From: a virus
Strand: one strand, 5' to 3'
DNA length: 64,000 bases
IMG/VR virus record: IMGVR_UViG_3300028840_005911
Location: 128,447 to 192,446 of that record
A model generated the notes under the pieces. That model was given only the letters and a program-made list of their open reading frames with translations, was not told the DNA's origin and did no database searches. The position numbers and the translations under genes were made by a program. Positions 1,401 to 9,200 of this stretch are shown one piece after another; the stretch's first letter is position 1, and every line of letters starts with the position of its first letter.

Positions 1401-2167
1401 GGAACCTCCTTGGTGTATTCGCAGCTCGCTGCTACTCCACTCTGAAGCACAAACCCTTTCTCGGTATGTCCACCGACGGCGGTCGGTACCCATCCTGCAT
1501 CGATCATGCACATCCACTGCTCGTAGGTAGCCGTCTCGTACCCAAATGCGCTCGCGCCCGTATCAGCGAGCCACCTCGCCAGTTTTTCTGGCGTGTCGAA
1601 GACAGGGCTGATTGGAGATCCTTCTGACACGGTCTCCCATATCTGCCATCCCTCACCTGCTGGGGGCTCTTCAGGTTCCCAGAGCTCGTATGCTTCTTTA
1701 GCTCCTTTTTTGGTCCAGACGTTACCATCACCTTTACAGGTCTCACAGAGACCCCAAACCCCCTCCCTCTCTGCCCTGGCTCGTACGCAGACGTATTGGT
1801 CGGCACCACTGAATAAGGATGTCGACCTCTGTGACCACTCGTTCACCTGCTCTGCCGTTATCTTGGGCGGTGGCTCGATCTTCTTCCAGCCGTCCTCCCT
1901 GGTCCACATGTGCGTGAAGTCCTTCAGGCAGTTATGCTCGATGAGGGCGTCGACCTCGTGCTGGGTGATGTTGTAGCACCACTTGCGGCCAGTATTTGCG
2001 AAGTCGTACCAGTCGTCCGAGATCTGCTTCGTCTCCGGATTGTACCCGGACCCGTCGCAGTAGGGACATCTTTTGCAGTGTTCATAATGCGGATTGATGA
2101 ACCCTTTCCAGACTTCTCTCAGAGGCCAATCGAAGTCGGGCGCGACCCTCTTTACTTCTCTTCCCAT
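1397..2167 (-). CDS. hypothetical protein with two CxxCxGxG (DnaJ-type Zn) motifs
   Basis: CPYCDGSG and CETCKGDG motifs; GGAGGAG RBS before ATG 2167 (MGREVKRV). Confidence 0.7.
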   Translation of the reverse strand: MGREVKRVAPDFDWPLREVWKGFINPHYEHCKRCPYCDGSGYNPETKQISDDWYDFANTGRKWCYNITQHEVDALIEHNCLKDFTHMWTREDGWKKIEPPPKITAEQVNEWSQRSTSLFSGADQYVCVRARAEREGVWGLCETCKGDGNVWTKKGAKEAYELWEPEEPPAGEGWQIWETVSEGSPISPVFDTPEKLARWLADTGASAFGYETATYEQWMCMIDAGWVPTAVGGHTEKGFVLQSGVAASCEYTKEVP

Positions 2168-2189
2168 ATTCTCCTCCTGGTGTTTCCAC

Positions 2190-2218
2190 AGACTAAATCC
2201 TGGAGAGGTTTTAGTCAA
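2190..2218 (-). promoter_or_regulatory. sigma70-like promoter TTGACT-N17-TAGTCT
   Basis: Minus strand TTGACT (2218-2213), 17-nt spacer, TAGTCT (2195-2190), upstream of the leftward operon. Confidence 0.5.
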
Positions 2219-2259
2219 CGGTTGTTTTTGTCGAATGGTTGGACTAAAATGAAGACGTT

Positions 2260-2580
2260 ATGATGAAGCTGAGCGGCAAGCGATTCGACTTTGAAGATAA
2301 GGCGAGTGATTCTACTTTGCTTGTACCAAAAACTGACGTAAATTTGAAGTCATCCAGACAGGTCATCAAGTTCTCTACACACGAGCTCAAGATCCTCTCG
2401 AAGTTCCGTAAGGAAGTCAACAAGGTGAGAGAGAAGGAAGGGAAGAAGGTCCTTAGCCTGTCCGACCTCGTCCGGCTCATAGTCCTGGATTTCATTGCCA
2501 GTTTGAAGAGTCCATTCTACTTCGTGGACCTCGACGGGACCCTCGAAAAGTGTAAAAATGACCCTCGAAAGTACGTGTAA
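2260..2580 (+). CDS. small basic protein, possible ribbon-helix-helix regulator
   Basis: 106 aa, divergently oriented; strand (RQVIKFS) followed by helices (LSLSDLVRLIVLDFI). Confidence 0.5.
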   Translation: MMKLSGKRFDFEDKASDSTLLVPKTDVNLKSSRQVIKFSTHELKILSKFRKEVNKVREKEGKKVLSLSDLVRLIVLDFIASLKSPFYFVDLDGTLEKCKNDPRKYV

Positions 2581-2635
2581 TTATTAACGAATTCGTTTAC
2601 CACGTGGCATAAAATTTCCTTAATGATTACTACGG

Positions 2636-2653
2636 GTTGCAGAGGCAACTTTT
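2636..2653 (+). terminator. weak intrinsic terminator
   Basis: GTTGC-AGAG-GCAAC followed by TTTT, downstream of ORF 2260-2580. Confidence 0.4.
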
Positions 2654-2660
2654 ACGCTTA

Positions 2661-2696
2661 GACCACTGCCGCAAGGAGGGTATGTCGGCAGTGGTC
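2661..2696. terminator. 11-bp stem-loop at the end of the minus-strand virion operon
   Basis: GACCACTGCCG...CGGCAGTGGTC perfect inverted repeat; no U-tract on the minus strand. Confidence 0.45.
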
Positions 2697-2720
2697 CGGC
2701 GGCCGGGACAACCGCCTACC

Positions 2721-2927
2721 TTATATCCTGGGTGCGTAAGCTCGAGGGCCTTCGATCTTCTTGGTCTTCAGCTTCACCGCCGGCGTCTTGGTAAGCCGAC
2801 CTTCGAAGCCGTGAGGGCACTTGTCTATCTTGGACGTGGTATTGCCCTGGATGTTCTGTTCCAGGACCACGTTGGCGATCTTCTCCAGCTCCTCGAGGAA
2901 GGCTGGGAGGAGGTCATGCAGGTCCAT
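2721..2927 (-). CDS. small virion-associated protein with FLEELEKIA leader
   Basis: 68 aa directly after the tube stop; leader shared with other head-module proteins. Confidence 0.65.
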   Translation of the reverse strand: MDLHDLLPAFLEELEKIANVVLEQNIQGNTTSKIDKCPHGFEGRLTKTPAVKLKTKKIEGPRAYAPRI

Positions 2928-2929
2928 TG

Positions 2930-3589
2930 CTACAGGGCCAGCTGATCCGAGGCATCCAAGCCAACCAGGGCAAGGGCGCTGACTGCGACGGGCAGAGCGC
3001 GCTCGAACTGAATGCCGACGTTCTCCTGGATGATCGTACCCTGGGAGTCGGTGGCGATGGTGTGGTTCGGGATGTAGCAGGACTCCATGTACACCGCTCC
3101 GACCGTGTCCTCGTTGGAGTCACGGAAGTAGGCCATCATCCCAATCGGCTGATTGAAGAGATCAGAGGCCAGATTGATGTACATGTTCTCGTAGCCCGGC
3201 GGGATCTTCACGTTGTGCGCGTTGGCCACGGTTAGAGCCCCGAGGTTGTTCGCCCCGATGACACTCGGCACCAGAGTGGGCGGGAACAGGTCCTGGTAGT
3301 ATGCATACAGGACGCGGAGCAGAGAGGGGCCGTGGTAGAGCACGCGGCTCAGACCAACCTGGCCCACCGTCCGACCACTGATGAAGAAGGACCGTTCGGA
3401 CCCGATCTCAAAGATCCGGTTGAACTGCCGGGTGTGACTGAGATTGAAGTTCTGCACAATCCCGATGGGGAAGACGATGTCGTCACCTGCTCCCTCGGCC
3501 AGGCCGGCTCCCACGAACGTCTGGTTTCCGATGTTGGCTAGACGGGGCGGACCTGCGGCGAGCAAGGTGAAGTTCCCCGAAAGAAATTG
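2930..3589 (-). CDS. tail tube protein, exon 2
   Basis: Tube-like motifs (PIGIVQNFNLSHTRQFNRIFEIGS, YMESCYI); downstream of sheath. The apparent TTG start has no RBS and an in-frame TAA two codons upstream. Confidence 0.8.
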   Translation of the reverse strand, partial: QFLSGNFTLLAAGPPRLANIGNQTFVGAGLAEGAGDDIVFPIGIVQNFNLSHTRQFNRIFEIGSERSFFISGRTVGQVGLSRVLYHGPSLLRVLYAYYQDLFPPTLVPSVIGANNLGALTVANAHNVKIPPGYENMYINLASDLFNQPIGMMAYFRDSNEDTVGAVYMESCYIPNHTIATDSQGTIIQENVGIQFERALPVAVSALALVGLDASDQLAL

Positions 3590-3846
3590 CAACCGTTACG
3601 AGGGCTGTTTAGACCCTCCCAGGAGTTTCCTCCTGGTGTCGGACTATATCTTCTCCCCGAAGGGAGCCGGGCACTCGTGGGGCCGCTTATTGCTTACGCT
3701 GCTCACAGCCCTAGTCTCTGAACCTTCCGCAGTACTACGTGCGCTTCCTACGGCTTGGCTGCTGATTCCCACCACCTCAACGTGCTGAGGGTCCCAGCAA
3801 TTCACCCGGTGCACCTGCATGATTACTCCTGCAGGGGGCCAAATTG
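3590..3846 (-). ncRNA. group I intron without ORF (257 nt) in the tail tube gene
   Basis: P AAUUGCUGGGA, Q AAUCAGCAGC, R UUCAGAGACUA, S AAGAUAUAGUCC. P1 has a U.G pair at the 5' splice site; P8 has a UUCG loop, P9 a GAAA loop; terminal G. Splicing restores the frame. Confidence 0.92.
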
Positions 3847-3909
3847 ACCGTCTACCAACCCCGCTTGAACATAGTTCGTATACGGAGCCCACTGAGATAA
3901 TCTAGCCAT
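3847..3909 (-). CDS. tail tube protein, exon 1 (MARLSQWAPYTNYVQAGLVDG)
   Basis: AGGAGG upstream, ATG at 3909, 21 codons ending GGT; joins in frame to QFLSGNF (spliced product 240 aa). Confidence 0.85.
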
Positions 3910-4615
3910 GTTTCCTAACCTCCTGTCTCTGGTTATGGACTTCCAGGATGGTGGAGCACATCTCCAGGAGATCGTCAACGGACATGTTGCTCTTCATCTC
4001 GTTTACCACTCTACAACAAAGAACCACGTTGTCCTTCGTGTACCCTTTACGGGAATCGACCCTGTCTATACTCACCGCTTCAGGTTTTCTTCGCCCGTCG
4101 AATGTCATTTTACGACTTGTGTAGTGGCACAGCCCCTTCTGTCTGTACCACAACCGGACCAGGAACTCTTTGGTAAGATCGAAATCCATACCTGCGTTCC
4201 TGGCCCTTGTTCTGGACGCACCCAGAAGGCTCATGAGCCTATGGGAGGGAGACTTACCGAGTCTGCGCTTGTCGTATTCAAGGCGGCACTCTTTACAGTA
4301 AGTATCAACATCCTTCCCTTTTCCGTAGTACTCCTCAAGGGGTTTGATGAACCCACACTCTCGACAGATGCGGGCCCCGTCCAGCTCGGAGTCGATCTCC
4401 TTCATCTTCTTGGCTTTGGCCGCCCTAAACCTGAGCTCTTCGGCCTTCTCGACTCCAACTACCTTTTCCCGCCTACGCTGTTGGGACTCCAGGGCGCTGG
4501 CCTTGGCGCACGGCTTACAGTAGCCGGCAGGTTTACCCTTCCTGAAGTAGAACTCCCGGAAGGGTTTGTGCTCCTCACAATGAGGGCACCACCTGGTCTG
4601 GTCCGCAGAAGACAT
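3902..4615 (-). CDS. free-standing HNH-like homing endonuclease
   Basis: Two CxxC-Zn repeats, then QKGLCHYT...SIDRVDSRKGYTKDNVVLCCRVVNEMKS (beta-beta-alpha-Me nuclease motif). Confidence 0.8.
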   Translation of the reverse strand: MSSADQTRWCPHCEEHKPFREFYFRKGKPAGYCKPCAKASALESQQRRREKVVGVEKAEELRFRAAKAKKMKEIDSELDGARICRECGFIKPLEEYYGKGKDVDTYCKECRLEYDKRRLGKSPSHRLMSLLGASRTRARNAGMDFDLTKEFLVRLWYRQKGLCHYTSRKMTFDGRRKPEAVSIDRVDSRKGYTKDNVVLCCRVVNEMKSNMSVDDLLEMCSTILEVHNQRQEVRKHG

Positions 4616-4619
4616 TCGA

Positions 4620-5345
4620 CTATGTCACGATCCCGAGCGTGATGGGATCCGCTGTGACGCCGTCCGACGAGACAGTACACACCGCAGCGTCACCATTTGC
4701 CATGCCGGTCAGGTCGGTGACCTCGAGAGGAAGAGCGGTGTCGGTGATGGCACCGTTGACTTCCTGCGCGATCCCGCCGACTGAGACCACGAAGCCTTCG
4801 CCGACGCCCCCCGACAGAGACGCCTGAGCGGTCACGACCGGAACACCTGCGCCACCGGAGACGACCTGGACCAAGCGCGCCGCATCGGCATCACCGTCGA
4901 TGGCCACCTTGACGGCGTCTGCGTCGTCCGAGGCACCACCCTTGTCGATCTCGATGTCGGTTCCAGACACGGCGATGGCCAGACCACCACCGGCGCTGTC
5001 CACGATCTCGACCGTGATGCTGTTGCCGGGCTCGCCGGGACGATTGGCGGTGAACGCCAGCTCCGCAGTACCGGTGCCGACCGACAGCGTAGCCTTGGTC
5101 TGGCTCTGCAGGAGCTCGGTGCCTGTGATGGCGACATCGACAGGGAGGCCGGCGATGGAAATCGCAGTACCGCCTGTTGCGAAGTCGACGGTCGGGAATC
5201 CTGTGCGACCTTCCAGACGCCCGAATGCGGACTCGGTGTCGTCGCGAAGGTCAGCGACCTCTCCTGCTACGCCGCCCTTGCCGAGCCGGACAAGGTGAGG
5301 CTTGTTGGGGCCTTCATTGCTGAATGAGCGTGATCCTGATGACAT
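4620..5345 (-). CDS. virion structural protein, Gly/Ala/Thr-rich beta domain
   Basis: FTANRPGEPGNSITVEIV...LSGG module of the type seen in sheath/decoration proteins; lies between sheath and tube. Confidence 0.6.
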   Translation of the reverse strand: MSSGSRSFSNEGPNKPHLVRLGKGGVAGEVADLRDDTESAFGRLEGRTGFPTVDFATGGTAISIAGLPVDVAITGTELLQSQTKATLSVGTGTAELAFTANRPGEPGNSITVEIVDSAGGGLAIAVSGTDIEIDKGGASDDADAVKVAIDGDADAARLVQVVSGGAGVPVVTAQASLSGGVGEGFVVSVGGIAQEVNGAITDTALPLEVTDLTGMANGDAAVCTVSSDGVTADPITLGIVT

Positions 5346-5360
5346 TGTGTTCTCCTCTTC

Positions 5361-6185
5361 TTATTGTAGTCTAGTGAGTATTGCCTTCATACGGGCAGCT
5401 ACTCGCTCCCCGCCCGACATCTTCTTGTTTACCAGCTTTTCGAGAACGGTGATGGCCTCCTCCACGTTCTGAATAGGCTCGTGTCCGTACCCGTGGGACT
5501 TCTTGGTCCGTAGTTGGAGATTCTCTATCCGGTTGTCGTCCCTGGTCCCGTTGATGTGGTGCACGACCTCGTCCGCAGTAAGGTATCGTCCTACGTGCTC
5601 CTCCATCACCAGCCGGTGCTCCAGGACGTAACCATCTTTGTCGGCATTTGGGTGCCCCTTGCACATCTTCTTGAGATACCCGCGCTGATAGGTGCGATAA
5701 CCCTTTGGGAGACGTCCCCTGTTCTTTTTCTCCCTGAGCTTGTTCCCGTCCTCGTCGATGATCCCAGCTTGGCGCTGGATTGCATGCTTGTTGCACATCC
5801 ACCGATTCACAGGGCGTCTCTCGCAGCCAGGGACCTTGCACTCGGCGGCCTTCGGGTACGAAGCTAAGGATTTTCCGGAGTCCGCCTCCGGGACCTTTAC
5901 TCCGACATCCTCGCCCTTCTTCCATCTCTGCCAATGAGCAGAACAGAGGCCTCGCCCTACTGGACGACTCCCGCATTCTGGAACTATGCACCTGGCTCCA
6001 GGGCCGTAAGAGCGCACCCTTTTCGGTGGGCGAAGCTCCTCTCCGGTCTCTACATCTATTTGACCTCTGCGGGTCGCCATGTAGTGATTGAAGCAAAACC
6101 CCTTCGCCCCCTTCTTCGTAGTGTTTGTACACCCTTCGAACCTGCATTCCGGCCACTCTGTTCTCTTCGGTCTTCCTTTTTTCAT
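5361..6185 (-). CDS. free-standing HNH homing endonuclease
   Basis: GYVLEHRLVME...VVHHINGTRDDNRIENLQL HNH motif; three N-terminal Cx4C...CxxH repeats. Confidence 0.88.
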   Translation of the reverse strand: MKKGRPKRTEWPECRFEGCTNTTKKGAKGFCFNHYMATRRGQIDVETGEELRPPKRVRSYGPGARCIVPECGSRPVGRGLCSAHWQRWKKGEDVGVKVPEADSGKSLASYPKAAECKVPGCERRPVNRWMCNKHAIQRQAGIIDEDGNKLREKKNRGRLPKGYRTYQRGYLKKMCKGHPNADKDGYVLEHRLVMEEHVGRYLTADEVVHHINGTRDDNRIENLQLRTKKSHGYGHEPIQNVEEAITVLEKLVNKKMSGGERVAARMKAILTRLQ

Positions 6186-6220
6186 GAGGTAACCTCCTTT
6201 TCGGTTACCTCACTTATAAC
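6185..6220 (-). promoter_or_regulatory. GTTATAAG motif followed by a hairpin masking the HNH RBS and start
   Basis: Minus strand GTTATAAG-TGAGGTAACC-GAAAAGGA-GGTTACCTCA(TG): 10-bp stem covers part of AGGAGGT and the A of ATG. Confidence 0.7.
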
Positions 6221-6230
6221 TAACTTTGGA

Positions 6231-9200
6231 CTAAACTACAAGTACGAGTCTCACGTAATTGCATGGATATGGAACGTCCAAAGTGATGTCGATCAACACC
6301 GTGTCCGGGTTGTCAGCGTCCTGGATGATGTTGTTCACATCCGCCCCGATGACCACATTGTTCTCCCTGAGGAACGACCCCAGGCCCTCAACCACCGTGC
6401 TGAGGTTGTCCAGGAAGGGCTGTGTGATGTTGGACCGTCCAATGAAGGTCCGCAGACCCTTGCGGTAGAACTTCGCACAGTAGTCGACCACCTTCGTGAT
6501 GGACAGCTCTCGGGTCTCGATACTGGTGAGGTCCGTGGAGAGCTGGTGGCGACAGATGACCGGGGCACCATCCTCGTCCTGGACCAGAATGTATGTACCA
6601 CCGGCCGCCATCACGTTCATCTGGCGGTTGGTGAACTTGTCGTTCGACCCCACTACCCTGGTCAGGCCGGTGATCGGGAAGTTGGTGAACCCCTGCTGCG
6701 GAGGCTGCTGGCCAACCATGCCCGAGATACAGGCTGTGGCGTAGTACCCCTCCACGAGCTGCTCGAGCCCGGTGACGTTGATCCCACACTGATCAGGGTG
6801 GACGTAGTACATCCTCCGGTCACCGTAGGTCTGAGCAACACCCTGGATAGTCTCGGCGATGGCCTGATAGTCAGGCTTGGTTGTGCCCGAGACCAGGAGC
6901 TCGTCACCACGGATGTACAGAGACCAGTCGTCGCTGATGATCCCAGTGGGGAGCGTAGTCTCGCTGAAGAACGAGTCGGAGTTTCCATCCCCAGTCGCGA
7001 AGGTGGTCCGCAGAGTGATTGTCGTACCCCCTGTCACCTTCTGGACCAGGTAGTACTTGTCGTCGGTCCCCAGGTCGATATAGACCTCGTTCTCGATTGC
7101 TCCCGTGGTCGGGTTGATGTCCAGATTGGGATCGATACCCGCTGCGATGAGGGCCGGAGCCACGTTCACATCCACGGTGAGCTCGTTCGAGGTCGGGGTG
7201 GAGTTCGCATCGGTTCCAGATGCCAGAAGGTCCGGGGAAGCCCGGTCCGGGATCTCCGGGTTGAAGAAGTAGATGCGCTCACCCTTCTGCTCGGGCTCGC
7301 TCATGAAGTTCACGTGGGTCTGGAAGGTCTGATGCACCACCGGGTTCTGCGAGGCGGTACAGATGGCGTAGACCTCCTTGCTCTCCAGGTACTCCGCGCA
7401 GGTGGCATATCCTGCCGGGGTGCCGTCCGGTGCATCCGCAGAGACCTCAGGGACGCCGATGGATGCCACTGTCACGCCGGGGGCGTTGAGCAGTTGCAGG
7501 TAGAGCATCAAGGCACCGGGGTTGTCGGTGCTGATGGGATCTGCAACCTCTCCGACCGTCGATGTGTCATCCACGGTGAGCAGGCTCGGCTCATCGGCGT
7601 CCGGGCTCAGATCGAGACGCAGTGCCTTGTAGGCGATGTACGTGTCCGCGAACCCGCCGGCGAACGGATCACCGGTCAGGCCGTCACGCAGGATCTGGCT
7701 CTGTAGAACGATGTTACCACTGACGTCGATAGCCATATCAGGGGCAGGCCTGCCGCCGCCAGTAACGCTAGTATCGTCCGTAAAACCGAGAATAGAATTC
7801 GCAGAACCATCTGTCACCTCGATTTCGGAAGCCTCCCCGACCTTGTTGCTCTCCAGCTTCAGGTACGGGGGAGAGTCGGAGGTGGCCTCGGCGATGTTGG
7901 TTGTGAGCTCGTTGATCTTGTCGAGGACATGCTGCAGGGAGGTCCCGCCATCATCCTCGTCGGCCACGAAGGTCACGTCATACTCTGTCGGGTTGTTGTC
8001 CAGAGACCACTTGAAGTTGGTACCGTCCAGGTCGGTATCCGTACCGTTGTAGGTACCGATGGCCAGGTTGGGAACGGAATCCGTGGCGGTGATATCGATC
8101 TCTGCTGTGAGACCAACGTTCTCTCCACGGGTTCGGATGGCGAAGTAGGTCCCTGTAGCGGACTCCACACCTGTGCTGAGTGCGGAGTAGGCCTCGGTCC
8201 AGAGTGCCTGAGAGTTCCAGTCAGCGATGGCGGCTGACAAGGTGCCGTGGGCGGCGGCCCAGGTAATGGTCTCCGCCGCCTTGGCCGTACCCTTGAACTC
8301 CGGGGTATAGGTGATGGTCTCAGCATTGACCGTGGCGCTGAAGGCAAGGGCCCCAACCGCGAACGCCGGGGTACCGGGCAGGTACCTGATGTTCTCACCG
8401 ACGTCGGTGCTGGCCAGGGTCATACCCAGGTTCATGCCGGCCGTCTCTGCGGAGTAGGTGATCCCCGCCCCGGAGCCGGTGTTGTCCGCCTTGGTGCGCA
8501 GACCAAGGTAGGTACCCGTCGAGTGCTCGTCACCGACGTCGTTTGCCGGGTAGGCCTCGAAGTTGGTCGCTGCAGCATTGATTCCGGCGATGGCTGCGGC
8601 AAGGTCTGCCCAACCCGCCCCGGAGCTGATGGTCTCAGTGGTCTGAGCCACACCATCGATGGTGACATCGCAGTCGAAGCTCTCGCTGGCCCCAATCGGG
8701 TAGGTACCGGTCGAGGCACCCACGATGTAGGCGACCGAGGCGGCAGATGTCTGCTGGGTTCCGGTCTGTGCTGCCGCCGTGCTTGCCGACGGAGCCGGGT
8801 AGGAGAGCCCGTTGGCCCTGACCCAGAAGTACTTGGGAGCAAACGGCACGTTGGCCGTCATGATGTTCTGCTCGACCTCCATGGTCAGGCGGCTGGTAGT
8901 CACCGACACCACTTCCCCGATGTCCACACCCTCGGCCACGACCGTGTCGCCAGCCAAGATACTGTAGGAGGTGAAGTCCACAGCCGAGGCGGCAGGGGTG
9001 TCACCAGCGCTGAGCAGCTTCTGAGTGGTACCCTGGTAGAACTCGATGCGGGGGCTAAGCAAATCGCTGTCCCCATCGTCGATGGCGTAGAACCCGGCAC
9101 CGACAGCCAGCTCGGGCTCGGCGGCGCTGAATCCGAGGCCATCGGCCACAGCGTTGGCTGTGCCAGTCTCACGCACGACCACGGACGCACGGGCTCCGTA

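Follow-up and report, generated by a model that had tools for sequence, protein, structure and literature searches.

The stretch of DNA considered here (the window, 64,000 nucleotides) comprises bases 128447-192446 of a complete 192,446-bp genome record with direct terminal repeats, which belongs to an uncultured, contractile-tailed phage of 57% GC. Close to the start of the window, the minus strand encodes a tail sheath protein, an HNH endonuclease, a conserved 241-aa protein, an endonuclease VII/HNH-like protein, and a tail-tube gene that is interrupted between codons 21 (Gly, GGU) and 22 (Gln) by a group I intron (Table 1). A scan of positions 2500-6400 for promoters and terminators yielded nothing above shuffle expectation.

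The intron was recognized with the Infernal search that had been proposed in the first-pass annotation of this DNA: minus-strand positions 3867..3619 match the full Rfam model RF00028 (1-253) with 66.3 bits and an E value of 1.3e-14, the gathering cut-off of the model being 50 bits. There are no matches to RF00028 elsewhere in the 192,446-bp genome. It is 257 nt long (3846..3590), with the 5' splice site following the GGT that ends at 3847, the 3' end at the G at 3590, and exon 2 opening with CAATTT at 3589. The same CAATTT also begins the intron, and several junctions within this repeat would consequently yield an identical mRNA. The boundaries were set at 3846..3590 because this is the sole junction combining a U at -1 with a terminal G, and these are also the ends that the first-pass annotation had assigned. 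Beyond the read-through from exon 1, the intron is ORF-less.

Table 1. Genes, exons and intron elements of the sheath-tube region, given in positions of the window.
Feature	Position	Strand	Basis or sequence
Tail sheath protein, 1199 aa	6231..9830	minus	AF2 fold, BLASTP to Arash gp236, weak Phage_sheath_1 match
Second HNH endonuclease ORF, free-standing, 274 aa	5361..6185	minus	Pfam HNH_3 E 8.9e-13, many HNH PHROGs
241-aa ORF, conserved neighbour between sheath and tube	4620..5345	minus	Relatives in 14 related loci (tblastn)
Endonuclease VII/HNH-like ORF, free-standing, 237 aa	3902..4615	minus	phrog_1035 'endonuclease VII' E 1.3e-31, phrog_3118 HNH
Exon 1, 21 codons MARLSQWAPYTNYVQAGLVDG	3847..3909	minus	Translation; gap-free alignment to homolog N-termini
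Group I intron	3590..3846	minus	Rfam 66.3 bits, A3 covariation, MFE fold
P1	3849-3845/3841-3837	minus	GGUCA/UGGCC
P2	3835-3814, GUAA loop 3826-3823	minus	
In-frame UAA stop in L2 GUAA tetraloop	3823..3825	minus	Read-through ORF ends 3823
P3	3809-3804/3672-3667	minus	CCGGGU/GCCCGG
P4-P5	3799-3760	minus	
P6-P6a	3759-3722	minus	
P7	3716-3712/3646-3642	minus	
P7.1-P7.2	3711-3680	minus	
P8	3666-3653	minus	Closed by UUCG
P9	3636-3619	minus	GAAA loop
P9.1	3618-3600	minus	
Terminal G	3590	minus	
Exon 2, 219 codons + stop, QFLSGNF...	2930..3589	minus	Translation, homologs, tail-tube fold

Sequence and profile searches of Pfam, PHROGs, NCBIfam and the PDB sequences returned zero matches to the interrupted protein. 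Within a metagenome protein collection, the protein encoded by exon 2 has about 2100 homologs at E <= 0.001, mostly of 240-242 aa, and the sequence family, which is uncurated, comprises 507 representative clusters at this same threshold. We aligned 85 diverse relatives with P0004 at their head. This homolog is uninterrupted and shares 91% identity with exon 2, and it is the AlphaFold2 model of P0004, not of the window's own spliced sequence, that was compared with known structures (pLDDT 84.8, pTM 0.78). Its best PDB matches are those of phage 812, siphophage R4C, monocin, PVC/AFP, phiCD508 and lambda gpV (probability 1.00, E 1e-6 to 1e-4), all of which are tail-tube or tube-like proteins and which together span contractile and non-contractile tails. 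The TM-scores of these fold matches are moderate (0.34-0.50 by query), and the matches to the model in BFVD include annotated tail tube proteins as well.

The genomic surroundings point in the same direction. The AlphaFold2 model of residues 701-1199 of the 1199-aa protein encoded upstream (pLDDT 84.1, built from 45 relatives) matches the tail sheath proteins 3hxl, 3lml, 8q1i, 6gkw and 3j9q, and the C-terminal domains of this protein are held in common with gp236 of Salmonella phage Arash (BLASTP E 3e-29). In Arash, the gene for gp236 lies immediately before that for the tube homolog gp237, annotated as 'structural protein', and across 87 related loci the sheath C-terminal domain is likewise encoded upstream of the tube. 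The literature search turned up no publication on this phage. By both its tail-tube fold and this synteny, the interrupted gene is the tube partner of a sheath-tube module, which supports the claim of the first-pass annotation that the host gene of the intron is a tail-tube gene.

Some further features of the sheath-tube region can be recorded at this point. At 1199 aa, the sheath protein is ~500 residues longer than its Arash homolog (706 aa), and its extra N-terminal and middle regions match nothing. The 241-aa ORF has no match in Pfam or PHROG. In the L001 contig, one of the related loci, the ORFs 3608-4870 and 4928-5626 located between the sheath and tube genes exhibit weak matches to phrog_279 tail sheath (E about 1e-3). 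The small ORFs between sheath and tube genes, including that at 4620-5345, may encode sheath-domain-like accessory proteins.

Joined in frame, exon 1 and exon 2 encode 240 aa, and the product aligns without gaps to uninterrupted homologs of 240-242 aa across ...GLVDG|QFL..., as is evident when the spliced sequence MARLSQWAPYTNYVQAGLVDG|QFLSGNFTLLAAGPP is placed beside, for example, the uninterrupted homolog MARLSQWQPYDRYVQSGLVDGQFLNASFTLLAAGPP. The first-pass annotation had foreseen this join (MARLSQ...LVDG to QFLSGNF) and had named homologs lacking the exon 1 peptide as evidence that would speak against it; instead, exon 1 aligns to the N-termini of the uninterrupted homologs, which are continuous through the junction. 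The predicted N-terminal peptide of the spliced protein is (M)ARLSQWAPYTNYVQAGLVDGQFLSGNF. Exon 1 has its own ATG (3909-3907) and an AGGAGG ribosome-binding site (3924-3919), and it encodes W7, P9, G17, D20 and G21, all of which are invariant among close relatives (alignment A2). Because exon 1 holds these five invariant residues, dependence of tail assembly upon self-splicing would be a reasonable inference. The database call for this genome begins at an internal TTG and gives a protein of 211 aa (MLAAGPP...) rather than the spliced 240 aa, which is the kind of truncation by automatic annotation that had been anticipated. In the window phage and at least four relatives, the tube gene is mis-called as an N-terminally truncated protein of 211-222 aa; intron-blind pipelines thereby drop 21 conserved residues from a major virion protein.

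Among the tube relatives, P0126, P0127 and P0131 are unusually long (603-706 aa), with an N-terminal tube domain and ~400 extra residues, and could represent fusions or read-through of an unrecognised insertion. Two 184-kb contigs with a truncated tube call of 213 aa, L002 and L003, were considered as potential intron carriers and rejected: they have no intron, and the truncation stems from an ATC in place of the ATG of their relatives. This ATC follows a good AGGAGG at the start position in both contigs (L002:5895-5915 and L003), and either a non-canonical start or a sequencing error is possible.

Five distinct copies of the intron were identified at the same site (those of the window, L001, L200, L207 and L208), each of 257-261 nt and each located at the identical codon boundary. 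The L001 copy sits on a 176,864-bp contig and scores 57.5 bits against RF00028, the L001 and L200 introns are 81-85% identical to the window copy, and L207 and L208 were found in metagenome contigs using a pattern that spans the end of exon 1, the guide sequence and P3/P4 and that retrieved the loci already known plus three new ones. The five copies were aligned (A3) and the standard group I helices were entered as column pairs. Across the resulting 69 pairs, 98.8% paired, changes on both sides occur in 29, as opposed to 2-6 in controls with the 3' partners shifted by 1-3 columns, and none of 500 shuffles matched any of the observed measures. Compensatory changes are found in P2 (4 pairs), P3 (1), P5 (1), P6a (5), P7.1 (5), P7.2 (2), P8 (2), P9 (6) and P9.1 (3). 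P4, P6 and P7 are invariant in the five copies, their support being conservation and the Rfam model. The L2 GUAA and L9 GAAA loops are kept in every copy, and the MFE fold of the window copy recovers P2, P3, P4, P6a, P7.1, P8, P9 and P9.1 (z = -2.0). The first-pass annotation had read a complete group I core from the minus strand and had named P1, P2, P3, P7.1, P8 and P9; each of these helices is present when checked on the five same-site copies, and the intron is corroborated by the full-length RF00028 match, by covariation and by the gap-free alignment of the spliced product to uninterrupted homologs. In the Michel-Westhof scheme, a P7.1/P7.2 hairpin pair marks subgroup IA, the type to which the T4 introns belong. 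Since such a pair separates P7 from the 3' strand of P3, the intron appears to be subgroup-IA-like, as read from its anatomy alone.

Two alternative pairings were rejected. The P1 aligned by Rfam (GCGGGG with CCCCUGC, enclosing a long loop) would place the cut in exon 1 ahead of the conserved LVDG codons and is not maintained in L001 or L200, whereas GGUCA/UGGCC fits all five copies. Similarly, an alternative P5 hairpin (CCUCA/UGAGG) is possible in the window copy, but the other copies do not keep it. Separately from the core, the 3' tail of the intron (GUAACGGUUG, 3599-3590; GUAACUGAUUG in L200) resembles the L2 region (3829-3820; GGGUAACUGA in relatives), and all five copies have the identical 9-nt L9.1 loop UCUAAACAG (A3 columns 246-254 for these features). 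Both features probably reflect tertiary contacts or alternative pairings.

The P1 of the 5' splice site pairs GGU|CA with UGGCC over 5 bp, with a U.G pair at the cut in each of the five copies; one position alternates between A-U and G.U among the copies, which is a one-sided change. As P1 consists of just three exon and two intron base pairs and is almost invariant, covariation says little about it. A guide of 3 nt has precedent in the Azoarcus intron. Independent support for the P1 splice-site pairing can be drawn from codon usage, as Gly21 is encoded by GGT in all five intron-bearing alleles compared to 7 of 24 intron-less alleles (Fisher p = 0.007). The U at -1 is kept in all five copies, and the last intron base is a G in all five despite the differing length and sequence of their 3' tails. 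For P10, the 3-bp pairing of exon-2 CAA/CAG with the guide UUG/CUG is available in every copy and includes one double change, but three pairs are too few for the controls to be informative, with 194 of 500 shuffles pairing likewise. The shared CAAUUU that had been noted at the beginning of both the intron and exon 2 stands, and the P10 that it was said to allow is compatible with the five copies, though not distinguishable from chance.

The read-through from exon 1 ends at the UAA within L2. In every one of the five copies, this stop has the same position and codon, lying seven codons into the intron and before the catalytic core. Early stops keep ribosomes out of the core in bacterial and prophage group I introns (PMC2504315), and the UAA of the window intron is like those of that set in ending read-through before the core. 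Based upon these features, a splicing pathway can be proposed. Translation would begin at the exon-1 ATG on the pre-mRNA, and ribosomes entering the intron would halt at the L2 UAA. The ribozyme would fold, and its 3-bp guide pairing (GGU of the exon to GCC of the intron, and U.G at the cleavage site) would set the 5' splice site, which an external guanosine bound in P7 would attack. The terminal G at 3590 would replace this guanosine, P10 (CAA/UUG) would align exon 2, and the exons would be joined at the predicted junction GACGGT|CAATTTCTT (junction-spanning sequence GTTGGTAGACGGTCAATTTCTTTCGGGG), ultimately giving the 240-aa tube protein. Without splicing, one would expect solely a 28-residue peptide or, alternatively, an N-terminally truncated product devoid of the five invariant residues.

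A contrary reading would have it that the intron has lost its splicing activity, leaving this genome with a defective tube gene, or else that translation of exon 2 begins internally, with exon 1 a mere leftover. Gene callers do indeed give the 211-aa product from the internal TTG, and the splicing of the tail-tube intron, its GTP dependence and its efficiency are all predicted from sequence. However, the core elements and both splice-site nucleotides are intact and have been preserved through compensatory changes among the five diverged copies, exon 1 retains its ATG, ribosome-binding site, frame and invariant residues in five of five, the genome record is complete with terminal repeats, and there is no ribosome-binding site in the sequence in front of exon 2. 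Accordingly, we regard a dead intron or a vestigial exon 1 as highly improbable, while a functional self-splicing group I intron at minus-strand 3846..3590 of the tail-tube gene is very likely to be the correct interpretation.

When examining the distribution of the intron, it is evident that it is both rare and scattered. Among the 80 best related loci in IMG/VR, an expanded tube gene is found in just two, the L001 contig and L200. In a maximum likelihood tree of the exon-2 protein (43 rows, from which 40 loci without a match to the site pattern and the duplicates of L001 and L200 had been left out), the five intron-bearing alleles require at least five gains or losses, forced by well-supported branches, and the nearest neighbour of each is intron-less. 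Due to this rare and scattered occurrence among close relatives, the intron is probably mobile or has been so recently. Two further observations concern the flanking exon. In the window, GC3 is 0.48 in exon 1 versus 0.80 in exon 2 (Fisher p = 0.0017). Gene starts are generally slightly AT-richer, with the first 21 codons of 38 intron-less alleles differing from the remainder by a mean of -0.10, but the shift in the five intron-bearing alleles ranges from -0.19 to -0.38 (Mann-Whitney p = 0.0016). Furthermore, L200 differs from its intron-less sister L138 at 5-7 positions per 30 nt near the insertion site, compared to 1-3 further into exon 2. Both the low exon-1 GC3 and the density of L200/L138 differences fit co-conversion of the flanking exon during homing, the samples being small.

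The same distribution could conceivably have arisen if the intron were old and vertically inherited, with its patchiness created by repeated precise loss, such as through recombination with intron-less relatives or spliced RNA, and with the endonuclease genes being unrelated selfish insertions in an intergenic hotspot. Two endonuclease families do fill the sheath-tube intergenic regions of many relatives irrespective of the intron, the five copies occupy one site and are clearly homologous (81-85% identity to the window for L001 and L200), and there is no direct sign here of an intron tree in conflict with that of the host gene. Conversely, vertical inheritance must accommodate at least five independent events on the 43-row tree as well as the intron-less nearest neighbour of every intron-bearing allele, and the compositional shift of exon 1 is more easily obtained by co-conversion upon gain than by loss. 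For these reasons, we consider an old intron with serial losses rather unlikely.

If the intron is mobile, a candidate for a helper is encoded next to it. The stop codon of the endonuclease VII/HNH-like ORF overlaps the start codon of the tube gene, placing the ORF 55 nt from the intron insertion site. It has no match in Pfam, but a motif of the form (I/L)DR(V/I)D..GYT..N..C...N (residues ~182-205) does not vary among four relatives. In this family, an arginine takes the place of the first histidine that is usual for the HNH motif. We rejected the notion that the ORF is decayed (DR in place of DH), because the arginine is invariant in all four relatives and is therefore a family trait. Judged by its sequence and position, the ORF at 3902..4615 would be a candidate helper for intron mobility. 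The second HNH endonuclease ORF is located between the sheath gene and the 241-aa ORF, with relatives in 11 related loci.

One tentative scenario, which would add a mobility mechanism to the self-splicing intron described above and not replace it, is collaborative homing. During co-infection, the endonuclease encoded at 3902-4615 would cleave intron-less tube alleles close to where the intron inserts, the intron, by splitting this site, would shield its own genome, and repair would copy the endonuclease gene, exon 1 and the intron together. The proximity of an ORF-less intron to an endonuclease VII-type ORF, separated by 55 nt, is what such a scenario calls for, and there is a precedent in the pairing of F-CphI, which has an Endo VII motif, with the ORF-less psbA intron of cyanophage S-PM2 (PMC6083498). 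The patchy distribution of the intron, the low exon-1 GC3 of intron-bearing alleles and the increased density of L200/L138 differences near the insertion site would all be accounted for, and in L208 an HNH_3-type gene is found directly upstream of the intron-bearing tube gene. Despite this, endonuclease and intron do not travel together consistently across genomes. Relatives of the endonuclease VII-like gene immediately precede the tube genes of L168 and L199, which have no intron, HNH_3 relatives are similarly placed in L180 and L190, and in L001 and L200 the intron-bearing tube gene has no endonuclease gene beside it. The arginine that occupies the position of the first motif histidine in all four relatives also leaves the nuclease activity putative. 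As endonuclease relatives accompany intron-less tube genes, these genes invade the sheath-tube junction on their own, and the junction looks like a hotspot for selfish insertions. Consequently, it is doubtful in our estimation that the intron and the abutting endonuclease VII-like gene constitute a working collaborative-homing unit within a virion structural gene. Should they nevertheless do so, the sheath-tube junction, together with the second HNH gene, would be a hotspot that drives gene conversion and hence exclusion between co-infecting relatives in widespread uncultured phages of ~190 kb, with the low-GC3 exon 1 serving as a visible co-conversion tract. The five intron-bearing alleles, near-identical intron-less sisters such as L138 of L200, and two endonuclease families provide a natural data set of gain, loss and co-conversion.

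The first-pass annotation had placed fewer of the characterised phage introns in structural genes than in DNA-metabolism genes. Any novelty implied by this does not hold, as tail-tube introns have already been published. Orf142 of phage Twort, a gene later identified as that of the tail tube, contains three group I introns (PMC11878797), and prophage BwK1 of B. weihenstephanensis KBAB4 and a prophage of B. cereus B4264 have a tail-tube group I intron in common (PMC2504315). Like these, the window intron is a group I intron that interrupts a major tail tube gene in frame, and it shares with the BwK1/B4264 set the early stop that ends read-through before the core. The distinctions are nonetheless considerable. 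Twort and the Bacillus prophages are low-GC phages of Firmicutes, whereas the window phage is uncultured, with a 192-kb genome of 57% GC; and where orf142 has three introns and exon skipping, the window tube gene has a single ORF-less intron of 257 nt at codon 21. Moreover, the tube of the window phage belongs to a sequence family unrelated to the Twort and BwK1 tubes.

Relatives of the intron itself are found in other genes. A blastn search of an isolated-phage collection returned short, partial core matches only, in unannotated regions of Vibrio and Shewanella phages, and thus revealed no close relative with a name. Within IMG/VR, on the other hand, the J6/7 to J8/7 signature GGTTCAGAGACTA...GAAGATATAGTCC is present in at least 118 contigs. 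None of these contigs carries the tube gene, and they represent the same intron lineage in other host genes, with other guide sequences. The closest relative outside the tube gene, L049 (IMGVR_UViG_3300032894_000422, 1900-3920), concerns a major head protein gene (phrog_752), where blastn matches to the window intron occur at 2301-2424 and 2664-2885. This head protein gene appears to be split by two introns of the same lineage into three exons.

The T4 introns of td, nrdB and nrdD/sunY reside in nucleotide-metabolism genes, and those of td and sunY carry endonuclease ORFs. The window intron resembles these subgroup IA introns in its P7.1/P7.2 hairpins, the conserved J8/7-P7 element GAAGAUAUAGUC, the GNRA loops on P2 and P9, and its small size, but it is ORF-less and resides in a tube gene. 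With a lineage signature in at least 118 viral contigs and an apparently split head gene in L049, the known bias of phage introns toward DNA-metabolism genes may partly reflect which phages were cultured.

A comparison that bears on mobility is the psbA intron of S-PM2, which is likewise an ORF-less group I intron adjoining a gene for a free-standing endonuclease with an Endo VII motif. For S-PM2 and F-CphI, both the cleavage of the intron-less allele and its prevention by the intron were demonstrated experimentally (PMC6083498), whereas the window pair is known from its genes alone and lacks consistent co-occurrence across relatives. The tail-tube case leaves the understanding of group I intron function unchanged. 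Rather, it is a well-supported addition, with five natural variants and covariation, to the few group I introns known from phage structural genes. Compared with the previously known tail-tube introns, the window intron differs in phage lineage, tube sequence family and insertion site, and its biology is the same.
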